The translations under genes were made by a program, and so were the position numbers. The notes below the pieces were generated by a model. It made no database searches, was not told the DNA's origin, and was given only the letters and a program-made list of their open reading frames with translations. 64,000 nucleotides of DNA from Candidatus Hydrogenedentota bacterium (lineage in GTDB: Bacteria; Hydrogenedentota; Hydrogenedentia; Hydrogenedentales; JAEUWI01), in NCBI GenBank assembly GCA_034669905.1, contig JAXMOL010000042.1:10681-74680 (forward strand), read 5' to 3'. Positions 2,862-57,700 of this stretch are shown in pieces. Positions within the stretch are counted from its first letter, which is position 1. Each line of letters begins with the position of its first letter.

Positions 2862-4021
2862 AATAGGACTGCTCCTTTGAGTAACTGCCGAAAGGTAAAT
2901 CCACGAGGGGGGCACCCCATAAAAAAGCGGGCTTTGTCCCCCAGCGTGGTGTCCATCCGGTAGAACCGTTCAATGCATTGTTCCGGGAAGCGGTAGAAAC
3001 GACTGAAGACGGGGTGTCGGCGGGCGGGTTCATAGGCTGTGAAGAGCAATCGATTCAGCACCGTGGCAAAGCGATACTGATTTCGATGACGGACGATGAG
3101 CTGCTCCCAATCGGCGTTCACGGGGTTTTCCGGTGCACACTGGGCGATGTGTTCGGCCACACGAAGGGCACAGGGGAAGGAGTAGCCGGTCGCGGGGTGA
3201 AAGAACCCTCCCCGATATCCGACGGCCAGCGGCATCGCGTGCGGCCAGCGAGACGGCATTTCGTAGGGCATGGGTAAGACGCCGGATTCACATCGGATTT
3301 CCGAAGCTATGACATAGCCGTTTTGTTCGGCATAGGAGCGCACGCGCTCCCGGCCGTCGTTGCTGTCCAGCCGGGGGTTATTAGAGAAACAGGTGTCTTC
3401 TATCAGTACCCGTTGGGGAGTAAAAGGCAATACATACATGAAGCGGAAGCCGTCGTCTTGGGCGATGGTCGCGTCCATTAACAGCGGCTCGGTGCGGGGG
3501 CAGGGTGATGTCAGCGCCAGCTCCAATCCGACAAATTTCTGATAGCCCCCCCGAAAGCCAACGGGGGAGAAGGTGGGGCCCCGCCCATCCAATACATAGG
3601 TTCCTTGAAATCTCCGACCGTCCAACAAGACGACGTATCCATCCGCGACCTGGGACACGTGGGCACCCGTCACTATCTGTGTGTGGGGCGATTGCTCGAA
3701 TGTGGTCGTGAGCGCCGTGGCCAGCGCCGCGGAGGAGAAAGAGCGGTACCCACAATCGACCCGCCGGGCCAACTCGGGAAATCGGACCTCGTAAGCGGGC
3801 CACTGCACGGAGGCAACGGCGGAAAGCCACGGTTCTGCGGCGGCCGGCACGTCCGCCTGATGGAACGACCAGGTGTGATTTCCGCACAGGGTGTCCGCGG
3901 ATTCAAGCAACAGCACTCGGGCCGAAGGGAGATGGTGCAACAGGGCAAGGGCAATGAGGCCATTTTGCAGGCCGCCTCCGGCGAGCACGTAGTCCCAGTT
4001 TTTGTCATCGATTCTCGTCAC
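2858..4021 (-). CDS. crtY: Lycopene beta-cyclase (CrtY-type)
   Basis: GGGLQNGLIA, GNHTWSFH, YQKFVGLEL, LMDAT..QDDGFRFMYVLP and GGFFHPATGYS motifs. Start probably GTG 4021, because the track start at 4060 lies at the predicted transcription start. Confidence 0.93.
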   Translation of the reverse strand: MTRIDDKNWDYVLAGGGLQNGLIALALLHHLPSARVLLLESADTLCGNHTWSFHQADVPAAAEPWLSAVASVQWPAYEVRFPELARRVDCGYRSFSSAALATALTTTFEQSPHTQIVTGAHVSQVADGYVVLLDGRRFQGTYVLDGRGPTFSPVGFRGGYQKFVGLELALTSPCPRTEPLLMDATIAQDDGFRFMYVLPFTPQRVLIEDTCFSNNPRLDSNDGRERVRSYAEQNGYVIASEIRCESGVLPMPYEMPSRWPHAMPLAVGYRGGFFHPATGYSFPCALRVAEHIAQCAPENPVNADWEQLIVRHRNQYRFATVLNRLLFTAYEPARRHPVFSRFYRFPEQCIERFYRMDTTLGDKARFFMGCPPRGFTFRQLLKGAVLL

Positions 4022-4065
4022 CAGCCACGACCTTTCCGGAAGCTTCCCATCGTTCCTCACGTCTC

Positions 4066-4094
4066 ATGGTACGCCCGTGGCCTCTATTTGTCAA
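4066..4094 (-). promoter_or_regulatory. sigma70-type promoter of the crt operon
   Basis: Minus strand TTGACA (4094-4089), 17-nt spacer, TACCAT (4071-4066). Confidence 0.7.
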
Positions 4095-4188
4095 GATAAA
4101 ATTAGACAAAACACAGACAGTATGATAGGCTGAATGTGGAGAGGGGGTGGTTGGCGTAGTACAATGGCCTCGAAAAGGAGTTTCAGAC

Positions 4189-4710
4189 GTGAGTGATACG
4201 GTCATTCTGGTAGACGAAGACGATCAGTACGTGGGTACGGCGGAAAAGCTGGGCGTGCACCAACGGGGCGATTTGCATCGCGCGTTCTCGGTGTTTCTCT
4301 TTGATGAGGAGGGGCGCTGGCTCCTTCAGCGGCGACATGAAGGCAAATACCATTCGGGAGGTTTGTGGACGAACACGTGCTGCAGCCATCCGGCGCCCGG
4401 TGAAGAGACCGGGGCCGCCGCGCGACGCCGCCTCGTGATGGAAATGGGGATTGATGTACCGATTCATCGGACTTTCCGGTTCCAATACCGGGCGGAATTG
4501 GACAACGCGTTGACGGAGCACGAAGTGGATCATGTTTTCTTCGGCAGCTATAACGGCGTTGCCCATCCCCATCCGAAGGAGGTTTCGGATTGGCGCTGGA
4601 TTGATTTCGAAGCACTGCAAGGGGAGTTGTCCGCCCGGCCGGAACATTTCACCCACTGGTTTCGAATCGCGGTGCCGATGGTGCAAGCCCATATGGAACC
4701 GGCTATGTAG
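4189..4710 (+). CDS. idi: Isopentenyl-diphosphate delta-isomerase type 1
   Basis: LHRAFSVFLF, WTNTCCSHP, EHEVDHVF motifs; GTG 4189 follows an AAAAGGAG RBS. Confidence 0.96.
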   Translation: MSDTVILVDEDDQYVGTAEKLGVHQRGDLHRAFSVFLFDEEGRWLLQRRHEGKYHSGGLWTNTCCSHPAPGEETGAAARRRLVMEMGIDVPIHRTFRFQYRAELDNALTEHEVDHVFFGSYNGVAHPHPKEVSDWRWIDFEALQGELSARPEHFTHWFRIAVPMVQAHMEPAM

Positions 4711-26417: not shown

Positions 26418-26443
26418 GCACGGCCCCATCCACAGTACATGAC

Positions 26444-26478
26444 GACCCGTTTGCAGCGAACTGCAAACGGGTTGTTCT
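26444..26478 (+). terminator. Terminator hairpin after sdhB
   Basis: ACCCGTTTGCAG-CGAA-CTGCAAACGGGT perfect 12-bp stem followed by TGTTCT. Confidence 0.7.
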
Positions 26479-26610: not shown

Positions 26611-28806
26611 GTGGTTGTGACACCGTTGGACAGTGTGCTGGAGACAGATAAGTACCGCATCATACGGGAGCTGGGGAGAGGCGGCATGGGCGTCGTCTAT
26701 CTCGCGGAAGACACACGCCTGAAGCGGGAGGTGGCCCTCAAGGTGCTCTACGAGCATCTCTACCAGAAGTCCTCCTTCGCCGAGCGTTTCCAGGAAGAAG
26801 CCCGCTCCGTATCCACCCTCCATCACCCCAATATTGTGTGTGTCCATGGGCTGGAGGTCGCCAACGGCTCCGTGGCTATCGATATGGAGTTCGTCGAAGG
26901 TCAGTCGCTCGACCAACTCTCAGCGAGTGCCCGCGTCTCTCCTCATATGGCCGTGTCCATTGCCCGCGATGTCTTGAGCGGTCTCGTTACCTGCCATCAG
27001 ATTGGCATTGTCCACCGTGATATCAAGCCCAGCAACATTCTTATAGCCCTCGATGGCACCGCCAAGCTTACGGACTTTGGTCTCGCGACGGCTTATGCCT
27101 CCCACCTGGAAGATACGGTCAAGGGAAATACGTCGACCGGCTTTTATATGGGCACGCCCCGGTACATGCCGCCCCAGGCCTGGGAGGGGGGCCGTCCGGA
27201 GCCCTTCTGGGACCTTTATTCCTTTGGCCTGGTGCTCTATGAACTGCTCACCGGTACCTTTGTGTTTTCCGGTGACAGCCCGATGGAGATCGTAAAAAAG
27301 CAGTTTACCGACCCCATACCGGACTTGCTTCCCGTTACGAAAGTAGCCTCCCCCGAGTTGGTCGAGGTGCTCGATGCCATGCTGAGGACGGCGCAGGAAC
27401 AATCCCCCCGCGATGCTTCCGAAATGCTCTGCGCCCTGGAGCGGACACCGGAGTGTAAGGAACTCAGCACCAGCAATGGTTCGACGACGATTACCCTGCC
27501 GCCCATACGTCGCGCCACCGTGCGCGCAGGTGCCCGCTGGCGAAATGCCCGGCGGAGCCTGCAACGGAGCCGTGCCCTGCTGGGGGTGGTCTTGGCGTTG
27601 GTGCTCTTGATGGGCTTGGGAGTCTGGTTGCGCACGGTCCCCACTTCCGGTGCCGGGCCGATACCGCCGTCGGATTCGGTTGCGGTGACGCCCCATATGC
27701 CGACATTTTCCGAATGGGCCCGTGGCAGCCAAGCCTATGTCAATGGCCGCCTGCTGGCAGTGGATGGTGTGGAAGAGGCGGGGCGGTGGCAGATTACGTT
27801 GGATAGCGCGGGTGCGCCCCAAACGATTCTGGGGTATACCGACTCCGGGTTCTGGCTGGTGGATGTGCAATCAGACGTAGGTAACGACACGTGGCGAATC
27901 TCAGGAGGCTGGGCGCGGTATGTGCAGCCTGACAGCCGGCGTATGCAAATGGGATACGTGCAGGGCCACCTGGTTTGGGAGGGGCGAAGCGACGCCATGT
28001 CGATCTCGATGAACTGCGTCAATGAGATGTCGAATGCCGAACACACCGTGCAACTGGTGCTGTTGCTCAAACAAGCCCAACCCGACGCATCCGATTTCGT
28101 GCGGAAAATGGAGTCAAACAGTCGGTTGCAGTACATGCTGTATACATCGTTGCTTGACCGCCCGATGGATTGGCCCCGACGCATAGAAGCCGTGATGCCT
28201 TCCGTCACTGGGGGGCGAATTCTCGTGCCCCGGGTTGAAGGGGAGATTGTGCCCGATGGCCAACTGGCGGAGGAGCTCTGGTCCCGTAGTTACTACTTTG
28301 CTCAAGGGCGTATCGGGTACCTGGCGGCCCAGGTCCCTGTCCGGGGCCCCCAACTCCTGGTGCGTTGGACCGAAGGGGAGGTCGTGCTGGGTGTCCACAC
28401 AGAAGCACAATATCCCGGTTCCAACCTTGAGCTGGCCATCATGCCCTCCGTCGGTTCCGGCCTCGCAAGCGCCTATCACTTCTATGCGGCCTGCGACGAA
28501 TCCGGCCTTTATCGCAAACGCTTTTATGAAAGTCGACGGGAGCGTCGATGGGAATCCGAATGGAATTTCGCGTGGGACATGGCCATGACCGTGGGAGAGC
28601 AGGGCACCGACGTGGAAATTCGTATCCCACGCAAGGCGCTGGAGACTATCGCACGGCCCGAAATTGGATCCCGGTGGCGTCTCAATGCCCGCTGGCGTAC
28701 GGGTGACGCTGAGGATGCATCGGATCTCATTGCGCAATGGGGCGATGAAGAGATCTTGATGCTGGAACATGGCGTACTCTTGGAGTTTACGGGAGCCTCC
28801 GAATGA
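26611..28806 (+). CDS. Membrane Hanks-type Ser/Thr kinase with a large ectodomain (copy 1)
   Basis: LGRGGMGVVY, VALK, HRDIKPSN, DFG, GTPRY; one TM (ALLGVVLALVLLMGLGVWL); C-terminal DGQLAEELW..VEIRIP..WRLN CBM9-like region. Confidence 0.93.
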   Translation: MVVTPLDSVLETDKYRIIRELGRGGMGVVYLAEDTRLKREVALKVLYEHLYQKSSFAERFQEEARSVSTLHHPNIVCVHGLEVANGSVAIDMEFVEGQSLDQLSASARVSPHMAVSIARDVLSGLVTCHQIGIVHRDIKPSNILIALDGTAKLTDFGLATAYASHLEDTVKGNTSTGFYMGTPRYMPPQAWEGGRPEPFWDLYSFGLVLYELLTGTFVFSGDSPMEIVKKQFTDPIPDLLPVTKVASPELVEVLDAMLRTAQEQSPRDASEMLCALERTPECKELSTSNGSTTITLPPIRRATVRAGARWRNARRSLQRSRALLGVVLALVLLMGLGVWLRTVPTSGAGPIPPSDSVAVTPHMPTFSEWARGSQAYVNGRLLAVDGVEEAGRWQITLDSAGAPQTILGYTDSGFWLVDVQSDVGNDTWRISGGWARYVQPDSRRMQMGYVQGHLVWEGRSDAMSISMNCVNEMSNAEHTVQLVLLLKQAQPDASDFVRKMESNSRLQYMLYTSLLDRPMDWPRRIEAVMPSVTGGRILVPRVEGEIVPDGQLAEELWSRSYYFAQGRIGYLAAQVPVRGPQLLVRWTEGEVVLGVHTEAQYPGSNLELAIMPSVGSGLASAYHFYAACDESGLYRKRFYESRRERRWESEWNFAWDMAMTVGEQGTDVEIRIPRKALETIARPEIGSRWRLNARWRTGDAEDASDLIAQWGDEEILMLEHGVLLEFTGASE

Positions 28807-30980
28807 ACACCCTATACCGAATGGCGCGCACTGGACTGATTGCGACCCTGGCGGGCATGTGCCCATTGCTGGTGGCTGCCCAGGAGGAAGGGTTTCAGCC
28901 CCTTTCTTCCTATCCGGAGTCCTTATACGTTTTTAATGGCTATGTGTACTGCAGTGCCGAAGATGGGATCCACGGCCGGGAACTGTGGCGCGTCTCCGTC
29001 CCCGAAGGTAAAGCGGAGTTGGTCCGCGATATTACCCCGGGAGAGCGGGGGAGCCTTATCGATAGCTTCTACACCTTCAAAGACAGGCTGTACTTTCGTG
29101 TGGAAGACCCCCGACATGGCGGGGAACTCTGGTGGAGCGATGGTCAGCCAAAGGGTATGACGGAACGCCTGATGCGATTCTCCGAAGGGGATGCGCGGGA
29201 TGGACTGCGAAGTTTTCTTGGCGATACCAATGGGTCCCTGTTCTTCACGGTGGGTAGTAAACTGGATTCGAAGAAGGTCTACGTGTGCGAGGGTACCCGT
29301 GGCAGTATCCGTCAGTTCTTGCCCGACCAGACGTCGAATTTTCGAACCATATCGATCGACGGGAGCCTGTGGGAGGGGCTACTCTTCTTTCACGGCGACG
29401 GAAGTCTGGAGGGGACCCACCGCAACGGGTTCTGGTGTACAGATGGCACGGTGGAGGGTACGACCTTTCTCGCGCCTTTTGATAACGCACCGGGCGGGTT
29501 CTGTGCCATGGGTACGAAGGGGGTACTGTTTTTTGCCAAGGCGAATGGCATCGGGCAGGAGCCCTGGTTCACAAAAGGGACGCCGGAATCCACCCGCCTG
29601 CTACGGGATATCTGGGAAGGGGTGGAGTCCAGTGACCCTGCCGACCCCGCTTACTTGGAAGTCAAAAAACATCCGGCACAGTCCCGGGCCTTCTTCCGGG
29701 CGAACCACCCGGAATATGGCGACGAACTATGGGAAACTGATGGCACGCCGGAAGGGACGAAGCTCGCTTTTGACCTGGTGAAGGGCCGGGCTGGGAGTTC
29801 CCCGTATAAGATGACCTCCCTATGGGATGCCATCTACTTCAATGCCCGAAGGCCCGATGTGGGCAACGAGCTGTGGCGACTCAGGCCAGGAAGCCCCTGG
29901 TCGGTACAGCTTGTCAAGGACATTAATCCCGGCTATTCGTCTTCCAATCCCTATGCCTATTGCCAGCTCCCTCTGGTAGAGGGCATGGTCTTCAGTGCGG
30001 AAACGTCCCAGGGAGAGGAGTTGTGGTTCTCCGGTCTTGCGAACGACGACACACGACTCTTGCTGGATATATTTGAAGGGCCCGGGAGTTCAGAGCCGCT
30101 GGAGATGACGCCCATAGGAGACGTCGTCGTGTTTTCCGCCTACCACCCCGTGTCCGGCGAGGAACTGTGGGTAACCAACGGGAATTCGATGACCCGTCAA
30201 CTGTGTGATATCTATTCCGACCACAGTGAGAATCCGTCTTCTTTCCCGGAACAATTGACCCCTTTGGGTGACCGCATGGTCTTCGTGGCGGATGATATCC
30301 AACATGGGCTGGAGCTTTGGGTAACGGATGGCTATACGGGTGGCACCGAACTGCTGAAAGACATCTACCCGGGGCCCAGGGGCAGCCAGCCCGCCGAGCT
30401 CACCGTCGTGGGCGACTTGCTCTATTTCACGGCCGAGGCCCCGGAGTCCGGTAAAGAACTCTACGTTACCGATGGTACGAAAGAGGGCACCAGTATCATC
30501 AAGAATATTGCGACCGACGAATCGGGTTCCCGACCGAAGCATCTGACCGCCTGGAAAGGCCACCTGATTTTCAGTGCGACACGACCCTATGAGGGAGAAG
30601 AGCCCTGGATTGTACGACCCGGAAGAAAGCCCGAAATTCTGTTCAACATCCGCCCGGACGGAGCCGACAGCAGCCCCCGGGGCTTTGTGGCCTGGAAGGA
30701 TCATGTCTACTTTATCGCCAATGACGGCATCCACGGTGAAGAGCTCTGGCGGACCGATGGGACCGCCGAAGGTACGGTGCTTGTCAAGGATATTGTGCCC
30801 GTTCCGTTTCGAAAGATTTCTTATCATTCCCTGACGCCCCTCGGAGACAAACTGATTATTACCGCGGAAAATGACGCCCAGGGGAGGGAGCTTTGGGTAA
30901 TGGATTCCGAGCGCCCGGCACCCCGTCTGATGGCGGATATCGCATCCCGAGACAACATCCGTCTGTTCAACAATCCGTGA
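28803..30980 (+). CDS. Secreted ELWxxDGT-repeat beta-propeller protein (copy 1)
   Basis: N-terminal signal peptide; more than 10 repeats of G.ELW.(T/S)DGT..GT.L..DI..G..SS.P; ATGA overlap with kinase 1. Confidence 0.92.
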   Translation: MNTLYRMARTGLIATLAGMCPLLVAAQEEGFQPLSSYPESLYVFNGYVYCSAEDGIHGRELWRVSVPEGKAELVRDITPGERGSLIDSFYTFKDRLYFRVEDPRHGGELWWSDGQPKGMTERLMRFSEGDARDGLRSFLGDTNGSLFFTVGSKLDSKKVYVCEGTRGSIRQFLPDQTSNFRTISIDGSLWEGLLFFHGDGSLEGTHRNGFWCTDGTVEGTTFLAPFDNAPGGFCAMGTKGVLFFAKANGIGQEPWFTKGTPESTRLLRDIWEGVESSDPADPAYLEVKKHPAQSRAFFRANHPEYGDELWETDGTPEGTKLAFDLVKGRAGSSPYKMTSLWDAIYFNARRPDVGNELWRLRPGSPWSVQLVKDINPGYSSSNPYAYCQLPLVEGMVFSAETSQGEELWFSGLANDDTRLLLDIFEGPGSSEPLEMTPIGDVVVFSAYHPVSGEELWVTNGNSMTRQLCDIYSDHSENPSSFPEQLTPLGDRMVFVADDIQHGLELWVTDGYTGGTELLKDIYPGPRGSQPAELTVVGDLLYFTAEAPESGKELYVTDGTKEGTSIIKNIATDESGSRPKHLTAWKGHLIFSATRPYEGEEPWIVRPGRKPEILFNIRPDGADSSPRGFVAWKDHVYFIANDGIHGEELWRTDGTAEGTVLVKDIVPVPFRKISYHSLTPLGDKLIITAENDAQGRELWVMDSERPAPRLMADIASRDNIRLFNNP

Positions 30981-31097
30981 TACGCAAAGACGGTGTTGCA
31001 AAAGGGTAGTGCAATAGCGCCATAATAGGCCAAGGGGCAATGGAGAGAGACGGGACAGGGGCACCCGTATACGGTGCTTGCCTGAAAGTTGGGGTCC

Positions 31098-33182
31098 ATG
31101 CCGACGGTTGAGAATGTGCTGGAGTCAGAAAAGTATCACGTGGTTCGGGAACTGGGTCGCGGCGGGATGGGTGTGGTCTATCTCGCGGAAGACCGGCAAC
31201 TGAAGCGCAAGGTCGCCCTGAAGGTACTCTACGAACATCTCAACAAAGAAACCGCCTTTGTCGAGCGATTCCGCGAAGAGGCCCGTTCCGTCTCTACCCT
31301 CCACCATCCCAATATCGTCTGCGTACATGGCCTGGAGCACGCCAACGGGGTGGTCGCTATCGACATGGAATATGTGGAGGGATACTCCCTCGATATGGTG
31401 ATGGGTACGAGTCAGATGACTCCCCATATTGCCGTATCCATCGCCCGCGATGTCTTGAGTGGTCTGGTCACGTGCCACGAAATCGGGATTGTCCATCGGG
31501 ATATCAAACCCAGCAACATCCTCGTCCACCATGGTGGCACGGCGAAGTTGACCGATTTCGGACTGGCCACGGCCTATGCCTCCCACCTTGAGGCCACGGT
31601 ACGGGGGAATACGTCGTCCGGTTTTTACATGGGAACTCCTCGTTACATGCCGGTGGAGGCGTGGGAGGGAGGCGACCCCAAGCCCATGTGGGATGTCTAC
31701 TCCTTCGGCATCGTACTCTATGAACTCCTGTCGGGGGGGGCAGCCTTTGCCGCCGAGAATCCGATGGCGATCATGAAAAAGCACCTGACCGAGCCCTTGC
31801 CCTTGATTCGGGAGGTGGCCTCGGGCATATCGGACGAATTGGCGGATCTGGTCGATGCCCTGGTGCGCGAGCCGACGGACAATCTGTTGACAAGCGCGGA
31901 AGCCCTTCGGGTCCTTCAGGGAACGCCAGAGTTCGCAGAACTGCAAGACAGTAATGTGGCCACCACCATTGCGGTATCTCCCGTGCGTCGTTCGCTACGG
32001 CGTGCCCGTCGGCTGCGTATTTCACGTACGCCAATGTTCATCGGGGTCGGATTGGTCTTACTCCTACTTATCGGCTATCTCCTATGGGATGGTTCGACGC
32101 CAGGCGCTACGCATGGCTCCGGGCAGTTTATGACCATGCGGGTGGTGGGCGCGACTTCTGCCGAAGAAACCTGGATGGTAGAAAAGACACCGGGATCGAC
32201 GGCGCTCTGGTTTACAGGATATTCCGACTCGGGGCTGACGCGAATCGAAGCCCAACGGGTACAACCGGGCGAATGGACACTCAGCGGGGGCTGGGCCCAA
32301 TTGGTGATGCCCCAGGCAGGGAGTTTTCAATATGGCACCGTCACGGGCAGTCTCTTCTGGCCCGAGGGGACGGCCAGCCTTTATGTCAATATGGAGCGGG
32401 TGCGCGAGGTGGATGGGCTGCGAGAGCGCATCTCCATGGCGAGTATGCCCTCCCCCCGAATTCGGAGTCAGCAGGAATTCATCCGTGGGCTTGAAAAGCA
32501 GGACTTGCTACAGGCGCTTATCTACAATGAGTTGCTCGACGTCGCCAAGTTCCCGTGGGTACTGGCCATCGAATCCATGTTTCCCGGGACAGCCCGTTCC
32601 CGCTACGCCATCCCCTATGGCGCCGACCCGATCGTGGTCGATGGACAGCTTGACGAGCCCCTTTGGACCAACGAGTATTTTTACCCCGATGGGGGGACGC
32701 TCGGTGACGTGGTGCCCGGCGAAATGCAGGTGCCGGTCGAATTGCGAGCACGCTGGCGGGAGGGCGGGGTCGTGATCGCTTCGGAAATTGATAGTGGGGA
32801 TCCGAGCCTGCGATTCGAGTTGGGTTTCATGCCCGCCTTTGAAGTGTCGTTGCGAAACTCCGGGCGGCTGGTATTGGAAGCCCCATCCAGCGGCGCGGTG
32901 AGCTTCCAGTACTTCGAGGCCGGTGTACGCAGGCCGTTCAATGCCCAATGGCCGGTCGCGCTTCAGCAGGGCAATGAAAAAACGCGAATCGAGATGGATA
33001 TCCCCTCGGATCTCCTGGAAGAAAAAGCCCGCGCGGTTGCGCAGAAGCGATGGCGCATCAACGCCCGGTGGACGCGTAGTGATGGCGTGGGTTCCCGTGA
33101 GGTAGTGGCCCAATGGGGAGACCATGAATTTATCGCCTTGGAGCATGGGGCGCTATTCGTTTTTCAGGCGCCGAACGGCTGA
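31098..33182 (+). CDS. Membrane Hanks-type Ser/Thr kinase with a large ectodomain (copy 2)
   Basis: Same catalytic motifs as copy 1; TM MFIGVGLVLLLLIGYLLW; C-terminal DGQLDEPLW..IEMDIP..WRIN; start ATG 31098. Confidence 0.93.
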   Translation: MPTVENVLESEKYHVVRELGRGGMGVVYLAEDRQLKRKVALKVLYEHLNKETAFVERFREEARSVSTLHHPNIVCVHGLEHANGVVAIDMEYVEGYSLDMVMGTSQMTPHIAVSIARDVLSGLVTCHEIGIVHRDIKPSNILVHHGGTAKLTDFGLATAYASHLEATVRGNTSSGFYMGTPRYMPVEAWEGGDPKPMWDVYSFGIVLYELLSGGAAFAAENPMAIMKKHLTEPLPLIREVASGISDELADLVDALVREPTDNLLTSAEALRVLQGTPEFAELQDSNVATTIAVSPVRRSLRRARRLRISRTPMFIGVGLVLLLLIGYLLWDGSTPGATHGSGQFMTMRVVGATSAEETWMVEKTPGSTALWFTGYSDSGLTRIEAQRVQPGEWTLSGGWAQLVMPQAGSFQYGTVTGSLFWPEGTASLYVNMERVREVDGLRERISMASMPSPRIRSQQEFIRGLEKQDLLQALIYNELLDVAKFPWVLAIESMFPGTARSRYAIPYGADPIVVDGQLDEPLWTNEYFYPDGGTLGDVVPGEMQVPVELRARWREGGVVIASEIDSGDPSLRFELGFMPAFEVSLRNSGRLVLEAPSSGAVSFQYFEAGVRRPFNAQWPVALQQGNEKTRIEMDIPSDLLEEKARAVAQKRWRINARWTRSDGVGSREVVAQWGDHEFIALEHGALFVFQAPNG

Positions 33183-33226
33183 GGTCTTCGCGGACAATTG
33201 GCTGAAACGAGAAGGAGCGAACAGCG

Positions 33227-35380
33227 ATGAGCTGGCGAACTTTACCGTTGATGTGTGCGTGTTTGTTGGTCGGGGGGCTTTCCGTGCCTGCGCAGACGGG
33301 CACCTTCAAGCCCTTGTCATCCCAGCCTGAGGATGTCGTCGCGATGGATGGGTGGCTCTACTTCAGCGCCGACGACGGCCGCTTTGGCCGGGAATTGTGG
33401 CGTGCAAATATCGAGGGGAATGCCGAGCGACTGACCGATCTTTCCCGTGGGGCGCTCAGCTCAGAAATTTATAGTCTCTATCCCTATAAGGGCGTGCTCT
33501 ATTTCGGTTACCGGCCGGAAGGAGGGGTGGGACAGCTCTGGCGTTCCGATGGTACTGAGGTCGGGACCTATCAGCTGAGCCGTTTGCCGGCGGATGGCAC
33601 AATGGCCCCCTTTCATAGAGTGCTTGCTCACAGTCGTAGTCGACTCTATATCGTAACGGGAGAAGGGCAGGGTACGAAGCAGCTCTGGGAAAGTGACGGG
33701 ACGAGTGAGGGCACCCGAAGGGTGTGCGAGGCGAGCCGTGGGAATCCCATAAACTGTGACTCCTTCCATGGGGTCGTTTCCGGAGCAGACCTCTATCTGA
33801 ACATGAAGTGGGGAAAAGGCTTCGCTGTGGCGCGAGTGGATGGCGCCACGGGGTTGGCACATGTTATTCGGGAATTCGAATCGGAAGCGGTTTCCTTTTT
33901 CGCCCTGGAATCTGGCGAGGTCTTGTTTAGTGGTTTTGAGGAGCGTACGGGCGGCGAGCTATGGAAGACCGGACCTACACCCGGCTCATGCGAACTGGTC
34001 CGGGATATATATCCCGGCAAAGAGTCATCGAAGGTCGGGGAGATACACCGCTTTGTAACGGACCCCTTCGGGGTAATGACGCTGTTTGTCGCAACGACCC
34101 CGGAGTACGGACGGGAGTTGTGGCAAACCGACGGGACCCGGGAAGGCACGACGATTTGGAGAGACCTGGTAAGGGGGGCGGGCAGTTCCGATCCGAACCG
34201 ACTGACTTCCTCCCGGGGTGAACTCTATTTCGTGGCCCTCGGAGAAAACGTCGGGAGAGAGGTCTGGTATTACAGTGCGGGAACCGACGAGGCAAAGCCG
34301 ATCAGCGATGTGAACCCCGGGCTTGGCAGCAGTAATCCGTACGCCTTTTGTCTGGCAAAAGATTCTTCGTTGTATTTCAGCGCCGAGGATCAGCATGTGG
34401 ACGAAGAGCTATGGGTCTTTCCGGGAACGGGAGATAAATCCCACCAGGTGGCGGACATCTATCCGGGAAAGCAGAGTTCTTTTCCCTTCTTTACCACCCT
34501 GCTGGGCGACTTCATCGTGACGGTGGCTACCGATCCCGTGGTCGGGCGTGAGCTTCGAATCTTAGGCACCAATGACGTGCCTCGGGTCCTTGTCGACATC
34601 TGGACGGATAACAGCGTAAATCCGTCCTCCTCACCCAGTCAGTTCACGATCTTTCGCGATCGCCTCTTCTTCGTCGCGAACGACCTCCGGCGTGGCAATG
34701 AGCTCTGGACCAGCGACGGGACCAACGCGGGTACCCGTCTGGTCAAAGACATTCATTCCGGGCGTAAGAGCAGCAACCCGAGCCAATTGACGGTAGTGGG
34801 TGATCTGCTGTACTTCGTGGCGGATGACGGTGTCCATGGCTATGAATTGTGGCGCAGTGATGGGAGCGAGGCCGGGACCGCCATGACGATGGAAATTGCG
34901 TGGCCCATGTCGCCGCGCATCCGACATCTCACCGCCTTCAAGGAGAATCTGGTTTTCAGTGCGTGGCGGGAAAAGGAAGGGGCGGAACTCTGGATTGTGC
35001 GCCCGGGGAGAAACCCCGAGATACTTAAAGATATCAACGCCGGGGCAGGCTCCAGCGATCCCAACGATCTGGTGGTATGGAAGGAACACGTCTACTTTCA
35101 GGCGGATGATGGCATCACCGGCATGGAATTCTGGCGGACCGATGGGACGGAGGAAGGCACCGTCATGGTGAAGGATATCATCAACGCACCGGTGGAAAAG
35201 ATTCGCGCGCTGGAAGTGCGTCCCGGGTTGGGGGGGCTTGTTATTTCTGCGGAGGTGGATGGGGCTGGCGCCGAACTCTGGGCCTTGAAAGAGCAGGGGC
35301 GTGCCCTGCATCTCGTGCGGGATATTGCATCCCCCTCGGTGCTCGGCGTCTTAAACCCGCTGTATGTGTCCGTTCCGTGA
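33227..35380 (+). CDS. Secreted ELWxxDGT-repeat beta-propeller protein (copy 2)
   Basis: Signal peptide MSWRTLPLMCACLLVGGLSVPA; repeats such as ELWQTDGT, ELWTSDGT, ELWRSDGS, EFWRTDGT. Confidence 0.92.
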   Translation: MSWRTLPLMCACLLVGGLSVPAQTGTFKPLSSQPEDVVAMDGWLYFSADDGRFGRELWRANIEGNAERLTDLSRGALSSEIYSLYPYKGVLYFGYRPEGGVGQLWRSDGTEVGTYQLSRLPADGTMAPFHRVLAHSRSRLYIVTGEGQGTKQLWESDGTSEGTRRVCEASRGNPINCDSFHGVVSGADLYLNMKWGKGFAVARVDGATGLAHVIREFESEAVSFFALESGEVLFSGFEERTGGELWKTGPTPGSCELVRDIYPGKESSKVGEIHRFVTDPFGVMTLFVATTPEYGRELWQTDGTREGTTIWRDLVRGAGSSDPNRLTSSRGELYFVALGENVGREVWYYSAGTDEAKPISDVNPGLGSSNPYAFCLAKDSSLYFSAEDQHVDEELWVFPGTGDKSHQVADIYPGKQSSFPFFTTLLGDFIVTVATDPVVGRELRILGTNDVPRVLVDIWTDNSVNPSSSPSQFTIFRDRLFFVANDLRRGNELWTSDGTNAGTRLVKDIHSGRKSSNPSQLTVVGDLLYFVADDGVHGYELWRSDGSEAGTAMTMEIAWPMSPRIRHLTAFKENLVFSAWREKEGAELWIVRPGRNPEILKDINAGAGSSDPNDLVVWKEHVYFQADDGITGMEFWRTDGTEEGTVMVKDIINAPVEKIRALEVRPGLGGLVISAEVDGAGAELWALKEQGRALHLVRDIASPSVLGVLNPLYVSVP

Positions 35381-35482: not shown

Positions 35483-35512
35483 AAAAAAGCGCCCACTTCT
35501 GTGGGCGCTTTG
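35483..35512 (-). terminator. Intrinsic terminator of gyrA
   Basis: Minus strand AAAGCGCCCAC-AGAA-GTGGGCGCTTTTTT. Confidence 0.85.
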
Positions 35513-48724: not shown

Positions 48725-51700
48725 TTGCAGAATCTTGTCGCTACGGTTTTTGTTGGTGCAAATCGACCGAATACCTATGTTCCTTTGAAGCAATTGTTCG
48801 CGGCTACAGGCCAACGCATTCGAAATACCCTATTGCGGGGGATTCCCGTTGGATTAGTAGTTTCCAGCGCACTCGCCCTTGCCGCAGTGTTTTCCACCTC
48901 CGCGTACGCAGCGCCTTCGGTGCTGTCCGTGGTGCGGACGGACGCCAATCCCACCAGTTCTTCACAAGCGCGCTTTACCGTTACGTTCAGTGAGAGCGTC
49001 ACGGGGATAGACACGTCCGATTTCACACCGGCCGTCGGCGGTGGGGTCTCGGGGGCAAGCATCGTCGGGTTTACGGGAGGGGGCAGCGTCTACACGGTAA
49101 CCGTCTTCACCGGCACGGGTGATGGTACCCTGCGGATGGATGTGGTCGATGACGATACGATTATCAACGGATCCAGTGAGCCCCTCGGGGGCACCGGTGC
49201 CGGGAATGGGGCATTCTCCAGCGGGGAAAGCTATACCATAGACAAGACCATACCGGCGGTAAGTTCGGTCGTCCGGACCTTTGCAACCCCGAACAACGGA
49301 GCTTCGGTGGATTTTACGGTGACCTTCAGCGAAAGCGTTACCGGTGTGGATACGGGAGATTTCACACTCACAAGCACGGTAACGGGTCCTTCTGTGAGCA
49401 CCGTTTCCGGTGCGGGCACGACCTATACGGTCAGTGTAGACACCGGTACAGGAGACGGTACGCTTCGCCTGAATGTGGTCGACAATGACTCCATTGCCGA
49501 TGGGGCGGACAACCGTCTGGGGGGCGCGGGGCCGGGCAACGGCGGGTACACATCGGGCGAGGTGTATACCATGGACAAGACGCCGCCCGGGGTAACATCC
49601 GCCTTGCGGGCGGACAGCAGCCCTACGAATGCAACGGGTGTCGGTTACACCGTGCTGTTCAGCGAGAGCGTTTCGGGTGTGGGCACGGGTGATTTCAGTG
49701 CCGTGGTGACCAGCGGCGTCGTAAGCGGAGCGTCTGTGTCGGGTGTCTCCGGTAGCGGCACGACCTATACGGTCAATCTCGACACGGGCTCGGGGGACGG
49801 TACCCTTCGGCTGGACCTGGTGGATGACGATACGATCGTGGATGCCGCAGGAAACCCACTGGGTGGCGCCGGAACCGTCAACGGGGACCATACGGGCGAT
49901 GAGGAATATGTCATCGACAAATCCGCCCCGGTTGTATCGTCCATTACGCGGTTGGATAGCACCCCCACGAGTGCGTCCAGCGTGGACTATATGGTGACCT
50001 TTAACGAGCCTGTAACCGGGGTCGACGTGGCCGATTTTCTGGCGACGGTCAGCAGTGGCAGTATTTCGGGTGCGTCCGTCTCGGGGATATCCGGGAGCGG
50101 CACGACCTATACGGTGTCCGTTGGGACCGGTACGGGGGACGGCACCCTGCGGCTGGACGTGTCGGACGATGACAGCATTAGCGATGCCGTGGGAAATCCC
50201 CTGGGTGGTTCTGGCGGGGGGAACGGAGACTTTACCGGTGGAGAAGCCTACGTTGTGGATCAGTCGCCGCCATCGGTGGCGTCAATTTCGCGTGCAGACA
50301 GTACCCCGTCCAACGCCGCGACGGTGGACTATACGGTGTCCTTTAATGAAGCGGTCTCGGGCGTGGATGCTGCCGATTTCAGTGTGACCGTGACCGGTGG
50401 CTCGATTGCGGGGGCCTCGGTATCTGGTGTTACCGGGAGCGGAGCGACCTATACGGTAACGGTCGGGACGGGCACGGGTGACGGGACCCTGCGCCTGGAT
50501 CTCGTGGACGACGACAGCGTCATGGACACTGCCGGGAATCTGCTGGGTGGCACGGGCGCGGGCAATGGGGACTACGCGGCCGGCGAGGCCTACAGTATGG
50601 ATAAGACCGCGCCCACGGTGACGGTGGAGCAGGCAGGGGGACAGGCCGATCCCACCAACACCCTCCCCATTGCCTTTGACGTGACCTTCAGTGAGGACGT
50701 GACCGGCTTTGCCATGGGGGACGTGACGATGGGCGGCACGGCCACTGGTGTGACCTTTAACGTGAGTGGCTCGGGCACGACCTACAGCATTCAGATCACG
50801 GCGATCACGGGCGATGGCACGGTGATTCCCACGATAGGGTCGGCCGTGGTCATCGACACCGCGTCTAATGCCAACGACGCCTCAACGAGTACGGACAACA
50901 CGGTCACCTACGATACGGCGGCGGCAGTCGTCTCTTCGATTCTGCGTGTGTCGGGTACGCCTACCAACGCCTCCACCGTGGACTACACCGTCACCTTCAG
51001 CGAAACCGTGACCGGCGTCGATGCAAGTGATTTCACGGCAACGGTGACGGGGGGAGCGATTTCCGGGGCCACGGTGTCGGGCGTTTCCGGGAGTGGCGCG
51101 ACCTACACGGTAAGTGTTGGGACCGGCACGGGCGACGGGACCTTGCGACTCGATGTGGTCGACGACGATACCATCGTGGATGTGTCGGGCAACCCACTGG
51201 GCGGTGTGGGGGGCGGTAATGGCAATTATTCGGGTGACGAGGAATATACGGTCGACAAGACGGCACCGACGGTGACCGTGGAACAGTCCGGTGGCCAGGC
51301 GGATCCCACCAACACGCTCCCCATAACCTTTGACGTGGTCTTCAGCGAGGGGGTCACGGGCTTTGATGCAAGCGACGTAGCGATAGGTGGTACGGCGGGG
51401 GGCGTCGTCGTGAACGTGAGCGGATCCGGCGCGAGTTATCTCCTGAGCGTGGTTAGCATCGCCAGCGATGGCACCGTGATTCCCACGATTTCCCCGGGGG
51501 GGACCGCGGACGGGGCCACCAACGCCAACGAAGGGTCCACGAGTGTCGACAACACGGTCACCTACGACGTGACACCGCCCCAGGTCGCATCGAGCACCCG
51601 GGTCGACAGCAACCCCACGATGGCGGCAAGCATCGATTTTCAGGTGACCTTCAGTGAAGCCGTGACCGGGGTGGATACGGGTGATTTCACGACGACGGTG

Positions 51701-54700
51701 ACCAGCGGCAGCATTTCCGGGGACGCCGTCTCGGCCGTTGTGGGAAGTGGCACAACCTATACCGTAACCGTCAACACCGGGACCGGCGATGGCACCTTGC
51801 GCCTGGATTTCCTGGACGATGACAGCGTCGCCGATGCCCAGGGAAACGTGCTGGGTGGTGCCGGTGCGGGAAATGGCGATTTCACGAGCGGTGAGGCCTA
51901 CACGGTGGACAAGAGTGCGCCCTCGGTGACCTCCGTCATTCGGGCAGATTCGAATCCGACCAACGCGACGACGGTGGATTTTTCGGTGGGCTTCGACGAA
52001 TCCGTGACAGGGCTGGACACCGGTGATTTTTCGGCGGTGGTGGCCAGTGGAAGCATTTCCGGTGCATCGGTTGTGGGCGTTTCCGGCAGCGGTGCCAGCT
52101 ATACGGTGAGCGTGTCCACGGGCTCGGGGGATGGTACGTTGCGCCTGGATCTCGTGGACGATGACAGCGTGGCAGATCTTGCGGGGAACCCCCTGGGCGG
52201 CGTGGGTGCGGGTAATGGAAACTACACGGGGGATGAGCCGTACACCGTCGACAAGACGGCGCCCACGGTCACGGCCATAACCCGCAGTGATGGGGATCCC
52301 GCCAATGCGGCCACGGTGGACTTCACGGTGACCTTTTCGGAAGACGTCGGTGTGGTAGACGCCGCGGATTTCACGACGTCCGGAACGGTGACCGGACCGT
52401 CCGTCGGTAGTGTTGCCGGGAGCGGCGCCACGCGCACCGTGACGGTAAACACCGGGAGCGGGAGCGGCACCCTTCGTCTCGATCTCACGGACGACGACAG
52501 CATCACCGACTCCGCTGGAAATGCCCTGGGTGGCGTGGGCTCGGGCAACGGGGACCACACCGGAGACGAGTCGTATACGATTGATAAGTCCGCGCCGACG
52601 GTGACGGTTGAGCAGGCGGGTGGCCAGGCCGATCCGACGAACACCCTGCCCATCGTTTTCGATGTGACTTTCAGTGAGAGCGTAACCGGTTTTGCGATGA
52701 ACGACGTCACCCTCGGCGGGACCGCGACGGGGGTCTCCTTCAACGTCAGCGGTTCCGGTGCCAGTTACGTCATTCAGATCACGTCCGTGTCGGGGGACGG
52801 CTCGCTGGTGCCGACCATCGCATCCGGCGTCGCGGTAGATGGGGCGAACAACGGAAACGACGCCTCGACCAGTACCGATAATTCCGTGGTGTACGACACG
52901 ACCCCGCCGCAGGTGGACACGGTGACGCGGGCCCTTGGCAATCCAACGAATGCGTCGAGCGTAGATTTTACCGTGACCTTCACCGAGCCGGTGACGGGCG
53001 TGGGCGTGGACGATTTCGCCGCAACGGTCACCGGGGGCGGAATCTCCGGCGTTTCGGTGACGGGCCTGTCTGGCAGTGGCGCGACGTATACCGTATCCGT
53101 TGATACGGGAACGGGCGACGGCACGATACGCCTGGATGTGACGGATGATGACAGTATCGCCGATGTAGCAGGCACCGTGCTGGGTGGCGTGGGTGCCGGC
53201 AACGGAGATTTCAGCAGCGGCCAGGTCTATACCATCGACCGAACGCCGCCGACGTTCACCGGGATTGTACGTGGCGACCCGGACCCGACCAATGGGGCAA
53301 CGGTTACGTTCAGCGTGACCTTCTCCGAGAACGTAACGGGCGTGGGCAACAACGACTTCACCCCCGTTGCCACGGTGGCAGGCCCATCGGTCAGTTCGGT
53401 GACTGGTGGCGGCTCCACGCGAACGGTAACCGTCAATACGGGTACTGGAGACGGTACCCTGCGTTTGGATGGGACCGACGATGACAGCATCACGGATTCT
53501 GCCGGCAACGTCCTGGCCGGTCCGGGGGCAGGCAATGGGGACTATACAGGGGATGAGAGCTATACCATTGATAAGACGGTCCCGACTGTCACGGTCGAGC
53601 AGGCCGGTGCGCAGGCCGACCCGGTGAATGCACTCCCCATCCTGTTTGATGTCCTTTTCAGTGAGGCGGTGACGGGCTTTGACGCGACGGACGTCACGAT
53701 GGGCGGTACCGCGACCGGCGTGACATTTAATGTGAGTGGGTCGGGTACCACCTTCAGCATCCAGATCACTGGGATAACGGGCGACGGGACGACGGTGCCT
53801 TCGATTGCGACCGGAAGCGCGACCGATGGGGCGAACAATGGGAACCAGGCCTCGACAAGTACGGACAACGCGGTTACCTACGACACAACCCCGCCACAGG
53901 TGTCTTCCATAACGCGTGCGGATACAAATCCCACGAATGCATCCAGCGTGGATTATACGGTGACGTTCAGCGAGCCGGTGACGGGCGTAACGTCCGGTGA
54001 CTTCGCGGCCACGGTGACCGGCGGGAGCATTTCCGGCGCGTTCATATCCGGCCTTACGGGGACCGGTACCACCTATACGGTAAGCGTGACCACGGGTACG
54101 GGCGACGGTACCCTGCGGCTGGACCTGGCAGACGATGACAGCATTGTCGACGTGGTGGGTAATACCCTGGGAGGAGCCGGGGCGGGGAATGGCGATTACG
54201 TCGCCGGCGAAGCCTACACCATCGATAAGACGGCCCCCGCGGTATCGTCCATCGTGCGCGCCGGGGCCAACCCCACGAATGCCGCTACCGCCGCCTTCCT
54301 GGTGACATTCTCGGAGAGTGTAAGCGCCGTGAACAGTGCGGACTTCACGTTCACCACCACCGTGACTGCACCGAGCGTCACGGGCGTCACGGGAAGTGGC
54401 ACGGCATGGACCGTGACGGCTAATACGGGTACGGGTGACGGCTCACTTCGTCTGGATCTCAGTGACGACGACAGCATCGTCGACACGGCGGGGAATCTGC
54501 TGGGTGGTACCGGCGCGGGCAATGGGGATTTTACGGGGGGGGAGGCGTACACGATTGATAAAACGCAACCGACGGTTACCGTGGAGCAGGCGGGTGGACA
54601 GGCGGACCCGGCGAACGCGTTTCCGGTTGTGTACGACGTCGTATTCAGTGAGCCGGTGACCGGATTTCTTGTGACCGACGTAAGCATGGGGGGTACCGCA

Positions 54701-57700
54701 CCGTCACCTGTCTTCAGTGTGAGTGGCTCCGGCGCGACCTATACCATCCAGGTGACCGCGACCGGTGGCGACGGCACGCTGGTGCCCACTATCGCGGCAG
54801 GGGTGGCGGCAGATAGTGCCACGAACGTGAATGCCATGTCCACGAGCACCGATAACTCCGTTCGCTACGATGCGGTGAACCCAAGCGTGGTGTCCATAGT
54901 GCGCGTTGGGGCGACGCCCACCAATGCATCGGGTGTCGATTTTACCGTGACCTTCAACGAATACGTCATGGGTGTAGATACCAGCGATTTCGCGGCCACG
55001 GTGACGGGGGGCAGCATCACCGGTGAGTCGGTGACGGGCGTATCGGGCAGCGGGCCGACCTATACCGTGAGTGTGGATACCGGTACGGGTGATGGCACGG
55101 TGCGCCTCGACGTGGTGGACGATGACACGATTATCGATGCCCTTGGTAAAACCCTCGGCGGCGCCGGTGCCGGAAATGGGGATTATTCCAGTGGCGAGGA
55201 ATACAGCATCGACAAGACGCCGCCGGTGCTCAGTTCCGTGACCCGCACGGATGCCAACCCGTCCAATGCCTTGACGGTGGATTTCACGGTGACCTTTTCC
55301 GAGAGTGTCAGCGCCGTAGACGTCACGGACTTCGCCCTCTCCGCGACGGTGGTGTCCCCCACCGTGGACAGCCTGACGGGTAGTGGCACGAGTCGTACGG
55401 TGACGGTCGGCACGGGTACAGGCGACGGCACGCTCCGCCTGGATGTTTCCGATGACGACAGTATTGTGGATGCGGCGGGAAATCTCCTTGGTGGCGCCGG
55501 GGCAGGGAATGGGGACTATGTGGGCGACGAGACCTATACGATCGATAAGACCAAACCCACGGTTACGGTGGAACAGGCGGGCGGACAAGCCGACCCGACG
55601 AACACGCTCCCGATACGCTATGATGTGACGTTCAGCGAGAACGTTTCCGGATTCCTGGCGGCCGATGTAACGATGGGGGGTACCGCAACGGGCGTTACCT
55701 TCAGCGTGAGTGGCACGGGCGCGGCCTACACCCTCCAGGTCGATACCGCCAGTGGTGATGGCACCATCATTCCGACAATCGGGGCCGGTGTGGCGGCCGA
55801 CGCCGCGACCAACGTAAACGTCGCCTCCACCAGCACGGACAATAGCGTGCGCTACGACACGACCCCGCCTCAGGTAACCGCTATCGTCCGGTCGGGCGCC
55901 ACGCCAACGAATGTCTCCAGTGTGGACTATGTGGTTACCTTCAGTGAGCCGGTAACGGGCGTGAACACGGCTGACTTTGTGGCGACCGTGACGGGTGGCA
56001 CCGTGACCGGGCCATCCGTTTCGACCATCTCCGGCAGTGGAACGACGTACACGGTCAGCGTCGCGACCGGTACGGGCGACGGGTCCCTGCGCCTGGACCT
56101 GGCGGACGATGACAGCGTGGTGGATGCCGCGGGGAACGCGCTCGGCGGTACGGGCGCGGCCAATGGTGACTATACGAGTGGGGAGGAGTACGTTATTGAC
56201 AAGACGCCGCCCACAGTGACTTCGGTGGTCCGTGGGGACCCTGATCCGACGAACGGAAGCAGCGTGGACTTCACGGTAACCTTTTCCGAGACGGTTACGG
56301 CCGTTGATGTCACGGATTTTACGCTGGCGTCCACGGTGACCGGCCCATCAGTCAGCAGTGTTTCCGGTACGGGTGCTACGCGGACCGTGGAGGTGGACAC
56401 GGGAAGCGGTGACGGTACCCTGCGCCTGGACCTGGTCGACGACGACAGTATTGCGGACCTCGCGGGAAATCTTCTGGGCGGCGTGGGCGCCGGCAACGGC
56501 GATCACCCCGGCGATGAATCGTACACGATTGACAAGACCGCACCAACGGTAACGGTCGAGCAGGCAGGGGGCCAGGCCGACCCGACCAACACCCTGCCCA
56601 TCACGTTTGACGTGGTCTTCAGCGAGAGCGTAGGCGGCTTCGATGCGACGGATGTGAGCTTCGGCGGCACGGCAACGGGCGTGACCTTCAACGTGACTGG
56701 TACGGGCACGACGTACCTTATTGAAGCGACGGCCGTGGCCGGTGATGGTACCTTGATTCCCAGTATCGGGTCTGCCGCTGCAGCCGACCCGGCCACCAAC
56801 GGAAACGAGGCATCCACCAGTATCGACAATTCCGTGTTGTATGATTCCACCCCGCCCCAGGTTTCGTCGGTCACCCTGGCGGACAGTAACCCGACGAATG
56901 CAACGAGCGTAGACTTCACGGTCTTATTCGACGAAGTGGTGACCGGTGTCGATACCGGCGATTTCAGTGCGACCGTGACCGGTGGAAGTCTTGCGGGTGT
57001 TTCCGTTTCTGCGGTATCGGGCAGTGGCACCACCTACACGGTCAGCGTAGCCACCGGTACGGGGGACGGGACCCTCCGCCTGGACCTCGATGACGACGAC
57101 AGCATTTCGGATGCGGCCGGAAATCTGCTTGGTGGAACGGGCGCCGGCAATGGGGACTACGCCATGGGACAGGTCTACACGATAGATAAGACGCCCCCCA
57201 CGGTGGTATCCGTCACGCGTGGCGACCCCAATCCCACGAATGCGAGCAGCGTCGACTTTACCGTGACCTTTTCCGAGACGGTGGGCGTGGTGGACGGAAC
57301 CGATTTTTCTCTTTCGGCAACCGTAACGGCTCCGTCGGTCAGTGGCGTTGCCGGCAGCGGTGCCACCCGTACGGTAACGGTAGACACGGGAAGCGGTGAT
57401 GGTATCTTGCGCCTGGACCTGGTGGACGACGACAGTATCGTGGATCCGGCCGGGAACGTGTTGGGCGGCGCGGGCGCGGGGAACGGCAATCACACCGGGG
57501 ACGAGAGCTATACCGTCGACAAGACGGCGCCCACGGTGAGCGTCGACCAGGCGGGGGGACAGGCCGACCCCACCAATGCCCTGCCCCTGTTGTTTGACGT
57601 GGTCTTCAGCGAGGGGGTCACGGGCTTTGATGTCAGCGACGTGAGCATGGGCGGTACGGCGACCGGCGTGAGTTTCAACGTCAGTGGATCCGGCACCACC

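Follow-up and report, generated by a model that had tools for sequence, protein, structure and literature searches.

The mycobacterial kinase PknD, whose propeller is of the six-bladed NHL type, and the type VI secretion (T6SS) kinase PpkA are the described systems closest to the locus analysed here. This locus lies in a 64,000-nucleotide stretch of a Candidatus Hydrogenedentota bacterium genome (contig JAXMOL010000042.1, positions 10,681 to 74,680; the whole stretch is called the window below) and consists of two genes for membrane Ser/Thr kinases, K1 and K2, each followed by a gene for a beta-propeller of the ELWxxDGT family, E1 and E2. PknD combines a kinase, one transmembrane segment (TM) and an extracellular beta-propeller sensor (sections of PMC4601284 drawn on here). 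PpkA is a single-pass Hanks kinase with a separate signal-peptide partner, RtkS in Serratia and TagR in Pseudomonas; in the excerpt used of PMC6082577, this partner acts on the periplasmic domain of PpkA in the T6SS threonine-phosphorylation pathway, with an FHA protein as the likely target. In PghK of Shewanella, too, the outer part of a signalling kinase has a CBM9-like fold, and according to the portion cited of 10.1101/2023.05.05.539549 no other sensor kinase is known to have a CBM domain.

The present locus differs from each of them. No sequence or fold link to PpkA-RtkS was seen: the kinases end in a barrel and CBM9-like ectodomain, their partner is a propeller of 14 to 18 blades, and the FHA protein linked to the family is a sigma-54 activator, not a T6SS Fha. 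Membership of the PpkA-TagR/RtkS group was rejected, the unit lying between sdhCAB-like genes and gyrA with no T6SS genes in it (T6SS genes were not searched for elsewhere in the genome). Unlike PknD, the propellers are made of TIGR04534 repeats in nine-blade rings, and those of K1 and K2 are encoded by separate genes; K1 and K2 were rejected as PknD-type kinases, since they end in the barrel and CBM9-like domain, with a stop codon before the propeller, and the PknD layout is found only in a sister lineage (see below). PghK, for its part, is a histidine kinase that has two TMs and works with a response regulator, and it has neither barrel nor propeller partner. RtkS-PpkA is nevertheless a precedent, by analogy, for a membrane Hanks kinase that has a partner in the periplasm, and the K1/E1 and K2/E2 module works like PpkA-RtkS and PknD, yet belongs to neither. 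E1 and E2 are members of the ELWxxDGT family (NCBIfam TIGR04534) and belong, within it, to a subfamily whose members come with a receptor kinase, either as free proteins or fused to it. The literature searched, with subscription journals and bioRxiv supplements outside the search, held no paper naming ELWxxDGT or TIGR04534 and no described function for the family. We conclude that this is a real, conserved signalling module, whose logic (a kinase with a periplasmic partner, a kinase with an FHA regulator) is known, and whose parts and their union are absent from the literature searched.

An initial annotation of the window had described the kinase-propeller pair as occurring twice in tandem on one strand, and four open reading frames (ORFs) on the + strand indeed fill 26611-35380:

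26611-28806, + strand: K1 kinase gene, 731 aa (ORF listing)
28803-30980, + strand: E1 ELWxxDGT propeller gene, partner of K1, 725 aa, 11 TIGR04534 stretches
31089-33182, + strand: K2 kinase gene, 697 aa from a TTG start, with an ATG alternative at 31098
33227-35380, + strand: E2 ELWxxDGT propeller gene, partner of K2, 717 aa, 14 predicted blades

Linkage of kinase and propeller genes

In every case where its position can be scored, a propeller gene lies downstream of the kinase gene. The K2 ectodomain gave 78 matches, in 49 of 135 Hydrogenedentota genomes and 21 of 66 genera. For the linkage count, all 75 matches outside the window's genome were taken as 70 regions with 74 genes, to which the third pair of that genome was added. 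Among the 75 genes so tabulated, the propeller is adjacent in 65 (first repeat within 513 nt) and separated by one gene in 7, the remaining 3 being at a contig edge. Four further genes came from a profile search and were absent from the profile build; three have an adjacent propeller, and one is at a contig end. With the window pairs included, a propeller is found downstream in 77 of 77 scorable genes out of 81 (70 directly, 7 across one gene), and the order of kinase then propeller is constant over nine family codes. Scoring the co-occurrence of such kinases with a downstream ELWxxDGT gene was the check put forward in the initial annotation, and it was positive for every scorable gene. One kinase gene carries an in-frame stop (L081); its 5′ half was dropped from the count and its 3′ half retained. 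Other irregular cassettes are L091, where the propeller is split over two ORFs, and L085:177-5979 (- strand), which holds two propeller genes in tandem.

In the window's own genome (G000), all 39 TIGR04534 matches sit in four genes, every one of them kinase-linked. As a control, the surroundings (-3/+7 kb) of its 26 other kinase ORFs were examined: there is neither propeller gene nor FHA activator near any of them, and for one ORF an FHA activator lies 4.0 kb upstream. The third split pair of the genome, at G000:C64:2993-7236 (L001), has a 4-bp overlap, and its kinase reads HCD instead of HRD. Among long representatives with the ectodomain, 116 of 116 carry a kinase domain; at E 1e-30 the ectodomain profile matched 179 clusters, and 1 of 10 clusters looked up bears an organism name. 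Named homologues are from Candidatus Hydrogenedentes, Hydrogenedens or Hydrogenedentales. A single-protein locus search returned 2 Hydrogenedentales loci and 3 weak matches in other phyla, the latter three genomes matching the CBM9 half only and showing no kinase ORF in those loci. A sample of 301 genomes from a single other phylum gave no match to the ectodomain profile at E 1e-20, with up to 7 candidates scored in each.

The best argument that kinase and propeller are one receptor in two pieces comes from a sister lineage in which they are fused, represented in the same genome by the following gene:

G000:C33:49089-51476 (L002:7090-9477), - strand: fused kinase-TM-ELWxxDGT ring gene (relatives L104-L124)

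The fused family was taken as the best 22 of 30 loci matched by the C33 ring, the rest being split-type propellers or unchecked. Kinase, TM and ELWxxDGT repeats are in one frame in 21 of these 22 loci, the remaining one being cut by a contig end. The fused ring, of 433-449 aa, and ring 1 of the free partners align over their full length (427 columns, E 2.5e-127 by hhalign); with ring 2 of these partners the alignment is weaker (E 5.6e-80). A maximum-likelihood tree was built with 46 kinase domains, namely 12 of 57 split kinases, 8 of 20 fused ones and all 26 other kinases of the genome. Fused (support 100/99) and split (97/93) kinases are sisters at 100/100, apart from the 26 others. A single kinase clade is thus invariably equipped with an outer ELWxxDGT ring, either tethered or free. 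The split kinases are of RD type (67 of 70), the fused ones of non-RD type, with HCD in 19 of 21.

The genes of a pair also diverge together: distances in the ectodomain and propeller trees are correlated (r 0.82), and the nearest neighbour is the same in 38 of 57 pairs. The pair after sdhB is present in all 8 genomes of the same genus. Tandem pairs are a secondary, minority arrangement, found in 5 of the 49 genomes (G000, G065, G069, G063 and G106). Those of G000, G065 and G069 stem from one shared duplication, K1/E1 and K2/E2 each grouping with its own orthologous pair, and the tandem of G063 is a different combination of pairs. Identity between the window's two copies is 66% for the kinase domains, 30% for the ectodomains and 41% for the propellers, and by such divergence the copies are old paralogues. 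A recent duplication was rejected, likeness at the DNA level being limited to the part for the kinase domain, at 73%, and to 256 bp within the propeller gene.

Spacing within the unit is as the initial annotation gave it, with K1 and E1 overlapping by ATGA at 28803-28806, and a gap of 44 bp between K2 and E2, where an AAGGAG precedes the E2 start. Its placement between the sdhB and gyrA terminators is likewise matched by two hairpins:

26441-26476, + strand: terminator-like hairpin, 5′ boundary, after sdhCAB-like genes; 16 pairs and a T-rich tail, consensus match only
35486-35511, - strand: terminator-like hairpin of convergent gyrA, 3′ boundary; 11 pairs, consensus match only

The upstream hairpin sits 3′ of the Fe-S gene (sdhB-like); the names sdhB and gyrA are presumed from recognisable sequence. 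Elsewhere in the window, positions 245-4710 hold a carotenoid-like cluster (phytoene desaturase, synthase, lycopene cyclase, IPP isomerase), also named from recognisable sequence, and 48725-64000 (+ strand, open at the window end) is an ORF exceeding 5,000 aa that contains the bacterial Ig-like repeats Big_12 and Big_13, likely a giant surface protein.

Predicted architecture of kinases and propellers

The initial annotation had given each kinase a cytoplasmic Hanks domain, one TM and an ectodomain of about 360-390 aa, and made each partner a signal-peptide protein of ELWxxDGT repeats, and both descriptions held. Pfam Pkinase matches K1 at E 1e-45 and K2 at E 6e-46, and both proteins retain GxGGMG, VALK, HRDIKPSN and DFG, which makes them RD-type (HRD). 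A hydropathy scan found one strong hydrophobic 19-mer per kinase (aa 322 in K1, aa 314 in K2), none other exceeding 1.6. The predicted topology has the N-terminal kinase inside and the ectodomain outside (about 390 aa in K1, about 365 aa in K2). The parts are as follows:

K1: Hanks kinase, aa 15-264; TM, aa 322-340; barrel and CBM9-like ectodomain
K2: Hanks kinase, aa 16-272; TM, aa 314-332; ectodomain
32121-32456, + strand: K2 ectodomain, predicted N-terminal 8-stranded beta-barrel of no assigned family, then three helices (AlphaFold2)
32598-33170, + strand: K2 ectodomain, predicted C-terminal CBM9/DOMON-like beta-sandwich (AlphaFold2, Foldseek, profile)
33305-34618, + strand: E2 ring 1, nine predicted blades (structural matches over model residues 4-438)
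34619-35347, + strand: E2 second part, five predicted blades, beginning at a conserved NPSSSP motif (model, alignment)

Candidate families for the kinases were rejected in two cases. For the PASTA kinases PknB/Stk1, NF033483 gave 245 and 241 bits against a cut-off of 450, over the kinase domain only, with no PASTA match; the defence kinases MAD6 and PglW were far below cut-off. The K1 ectodomain matches the family profile at E 1e-100, K1 itself being among the profile rows. An AlphaFold2 model from an alignment of 67 ectodomains (predicted local distance difference test, pLDDT, 94.7) consists of a barrel over residues 1-112, three helices and a beta-sandwich over residues 160-350. The barrel resembles assorted unrelated 8-stranded barrels (Z about 10, identity 4-12%). 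The sandwich superposes on 1i82 (Z 16.8, root-mean-square deviation 2.8, 168 residues aligned), which is also the only PDB profile match of the ectodomain (E 0.0011), and Foldseek matched it to 7nwn (E 7e-7). Pfam was of no help with the ectodomains and propellers of the window; CBM9_1 is found in 3 of the 67 members of the family (best E 7.7e-5, values up to 1 being admitted) and in none of the 3 ectodomains of the genome; the ESM Atlas returned CBM9_1-bearing clusters at 0.90-0.91 for the ectodomain. The C-terminal half of the ectodomain is predicted, from the model, to have a CBM9/DOMON fold.

To look for a ligand signature, we took as reference what we believe to be the positions of the two-tryptophan sugar clamp of Thermotoga CBM9. 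At the expected place of the second Trp, W332-F348, no aromatic column was found at 70%, the register of the first Trp being uncertain in a weak alignment. Heme-binding DOMON domains conserve Met and His ligands; this type was rejected, His342 being present in 55 of 67 ectodomains but no column having Met at 70%. As the clamp Trp is not clearly kept and no Met is conserved, the CBM9-like fold does not name a ligand.

Both propellers score far above the TIGR04534 cut-off of 65 (E1 460.1 bits, E2 405.5 bits, 11 stretches each), and Sec signal peptides were read by eye. In the E2 model (pLDDT 85.9; predicted template modelling score, pTM, 0.62), 14 four-stranded blades were counted by hand from the strands, forming a nine-blade ring and five more. 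Among 57 partners, 31 are short like E2 and 25 are long, at 800-920 aa; ten of the latter could be split at the NPSSSP motif, and in these the second part is of 434-445 aa and amounts to a full second ring. A lipobox-like string was present in 3 partners, and a type II secretin scored above cut-off in the genome. The periplasm is the likely compartment of the propeller, judging from sequence, because partner N-termini have a hydrophobic core (71 of 73) and the genome encodes BamA. A profile search for solved structures related by sequence to the propeller gave one match, at E 0.36, and none that we retain. Foldseek placed the E2 model beside the multi-propeller proteins LRP4, LRP2 and LRP6 at TM-scores of 0.17-0.29, a likeness of generic propeller shape and not of kinship; the ESM Atlas clusters for E2 are unnamed. 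Complex prediction for E2 residues 5-655 with K2 ectodomain residues 1-349 scored 0.01 and 0.00 against a mark of 0.32, with the end of the last blade trimmed and no control complex folded, and counts neither for nor against contact.

The FHA-GAF-sigma54 activator

FHA-domain sigma-54 enhancer-binding proteins of Myxococcus xanthus were reportedly described by Jelsbak, Givskov and Kaiser in 2005. As with these proteins and PknH-EmbR (sections of PMC4601284 drawn on here), for which recruitment by a kinase is proposed or shown, an FHA activator without receiver domain accompanies members of the present kinase family; unlike them, it is of FHA-GAF-AAA-HTH type, and stands in cassettes with one receptor family and its propeller, although it is unlinked in the window's genome. 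The portion consulted of PMC2875238 has nothing on FHA activators.

When a gene separates kinase and propeller, it encodes such an FHA-GAF-sigma54 AAA-HTH activator in 7 of 7 cases. Overall, the activator is in the region of 30 of the 75 split genes, in one of four places (between the two genes, past the propeller, upstream or divergent), and it stands directly behind 13 of the 22 fused loci. Linked activators have FHA, Sigma54_activat with GAFTGA, and HTH_8. The FHA motif GR...SxxH is kept in 37 of 38, and GAFTGA or a one-letter variant of it in 37 of 38. Possible phosphorylation sites are frequent on both sides: among the split kinases 42 of 65 have a juxtamembrane Thr, as do 17 of 18 among the fused ones, and a Thr or Ser occupies one column of the activator linker in 39 of 43.

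Promoters were scored against what we take to be the sigma-54 consensus. With a limit of 900 bp from the cassette, -24/-12 boxes were found at 12 of 29 loci with an activator versus 1 of 42 without. Four loci (L045, L050, L064 and L095) have a linked triplet of kinase, propeller and FHA activator with its own -24/-12 promoter. The propeller as a sigma-54 target was rejected, there being no such box directly ahead of any propeller gene.

Several small ORFs accompany the cassettes. Stand-alone Fis-type HTH ORFs of 55-70 aa were seen at L050:2556-2741 (- strand), L064:9256-9426 and L095:9744-9935, and further ones at L045, L069, L079, L119, L052 and L055; at least three are directly behind a -24/-12 box, one matches Pfam HTH_8, and a profile of three sequences finds six more among the cassette loci. 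They are possible feedback competitors of the activator DNA-binding domain. Other conserved small ORFs (50-66 aa), with no notable Pfam match, lie behind -24/-12 boxes at L056, L065, L074 (about 190 bp past the propeller), L072 and L087.

Within the genus of the window's genome, a divergent activator is found only at two third-type pairs (L043, L051). Next to the third-pair orthologues of G066 and G069 there is a divergent FHA activator, and none was found at C64:2993-7236. The genome itself encodes rpoN and three unlinked FHA-GAF-AAA activators with GAFTGA (C7:154999-156969, C11:118382-120229 and C26:86126-88078), so output in trans would be possible. It has in addition an FHA-GAF-AAA protein without GAFTGA (G000:C27:67826-69700, - strand) and an FHA-GAF protein without AAA domain (C15:78954-79931, - strand), both possible non-activating modulators.

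A proposed two-piece receptor and its alternatives

That kinase and propeller are functionally coupled is, in our view, highly probable. The initial annotation had gone further and proposed a split receptor. Obligate pairing, joint inheritance and the fused sister form speak for this proposal; the module is not a split PknD, K1 and K2 having a barrel and CBM9-like ectodomain of their own. The whole statement that we put forward is that of a two-subunit receptor, in which a kinase and its own exported propeller, docking on the outside, signal to an FHA-GAF-sigma54 activator. Taken as a whole, we rate it slightly above an even chance. Among its parts, a direct co-receptor role of the propeller is somewhat better favoured, and an FHA/sigma-54 output is probable for the family; for the window's two copies, the chances of such an output are about equal either way.

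The proposed sequence of events is as follows. Kinase and propeller genes are linked and inherited together. The kinase domain is predicted to be inside, the barrel and CBM9-like domain outside, and the propeller to be made with a cleavable signal peptide. Recognition would be the task of the propeller ring, the sole ectodomain of the fused sister kinases, and the barrel/CBM9-like domain would offer it a docking and relay surface. Glycans or polypeptides of the envelope are the likeliest class of ligand. Once the ligand is bound, the kinases would dimerise and autophosphorylate, upon which a juxtamembrane phosphothreonine would recruit the FHA domain of the activator; the kinase would then phosphorylate the FHA-GAF linker, and the AAA+ domain would open a sigma-54 promoter. 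The two copies may be two input channels, their ectodomains being 30% identical, with similar catalytic cores (66%), and K1 and K2 may act in trans on one of the unlinked FHA activators of the genome.

Several observations weigh against this proposal. The counted genomes are kin, and the counts are not independent events. Dependence is one-way: an ELWxxDGT match is found in 77 of 135 genomes versus 49 for the ectodomain, and therefore many propellers work without a K1/K2-type kinase. Kinase domain and propeller distances are correlated at r 0.84, no lower than those of ectodomain and propeller, so that tree congruence shows joint inheritance and not contact, and is expected of any linked genes. 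The fused form is devoid of the barrel-CBM9 domain, the ring being its sole ectodomain, and is non-RD; fused and split kinases may therefore be activated differently. On the output side, a looser box filter, with no distance limit, gives 10 of 29 loci with an activator versus 6 of 42 without. No -24/-12 box was found near the window unit, and no activator at the window locus, at the other two loci of the genome or at any same-genus locus after sdhB; 45 of 75 rows have none, partly through contig ends. The recognition, docking and FHA/sigma-54 steps are proposed from gene context, fusion and analogy.

The alternative that fares best, although we regard it as improbable, is that the CBM9-like domain itself senses a glycan, such as a cell-wall fragment, the propeller being a stabiliser, scaffold or inhibitor that sets the kinase level or threshold. 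The clear CBM9/DOMON fold of the ectodomain, as modelled, would suit such a role, and there are parallels for both halves of the idea: PghK signalling needs its CBM9-like periplasmic domain (portion cited of 10.1101/2023.05.05.539549), and RtkS works by stabilising PpkA (excerpt used of PMC6082577). In the fused lineage, the ring as sole ectodomain suits instead a recognition role. Nor is there an aromatic column at 70% in W332-F348, where we presume the second clamp Trp to belong.

Less probable still is a propeller that has no contact with the kinase and is merely co-transcribed with it, as an envelope protein of the response or through a shared promoter. Many ELWxxDGT proteins of the phylum do occur without a K1/K2-type kinase, and tree congruence needs no contact. 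Such a view fits poorly with a kinase-then-propeller order kept in 77 of 77 cases while the activator moves among four positions, with the lack of any -24/-12 box directly ahead of a propeller gene, and with a sister lineage that has fused kinase and propeller. Equally unlikely is a propeller that leaves the cell as a signal or self/non-self tag read by the cognate kinase of neighbours, as its signal peptide without anchor, the type II secretin of the genome and the fast, paired divergence of ectodomain and propeller might suggest, for the propeller, at about 75 kDa, could reach the ectodomain only by passing inwards through the outer membrane (BamA), and the tethered ring of the fused form cannot diffuse.

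A broader reading can be offered tentatively, at clearly less than an even chance. The clade would use two interchangeable receptor designs: in one, a non-RD kinase carries a tethered nine-blade ring; in the other, a free double ring docks as co-receptor on the barrel-CBM9 domain of an RD kinase. Both would pass phosphothreonine signals to FHA-GAF sigma-54 activators, some with sigma-54-driven feedback by a tiny Fis-type protein, and ELWxxDGT rings in general would be ligand-recognition modules. Were this true, it would be a bacterial receptor/co-receptor system replacing two-component signalling, with insulated paralogous channels. The cassettes offer matched sets of kinase, FHA activator and promoter for studying sigma-54 transcription under Ser/Thr kinase control, and the presence of free and fused, RD and non-RD forms in one clade is a natural experiment on the origin of a co-receptor. 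The large ELWxxDGT family would gain its first job, and kinase, fused control lineage and transcriptional read-out make this function directly testable.

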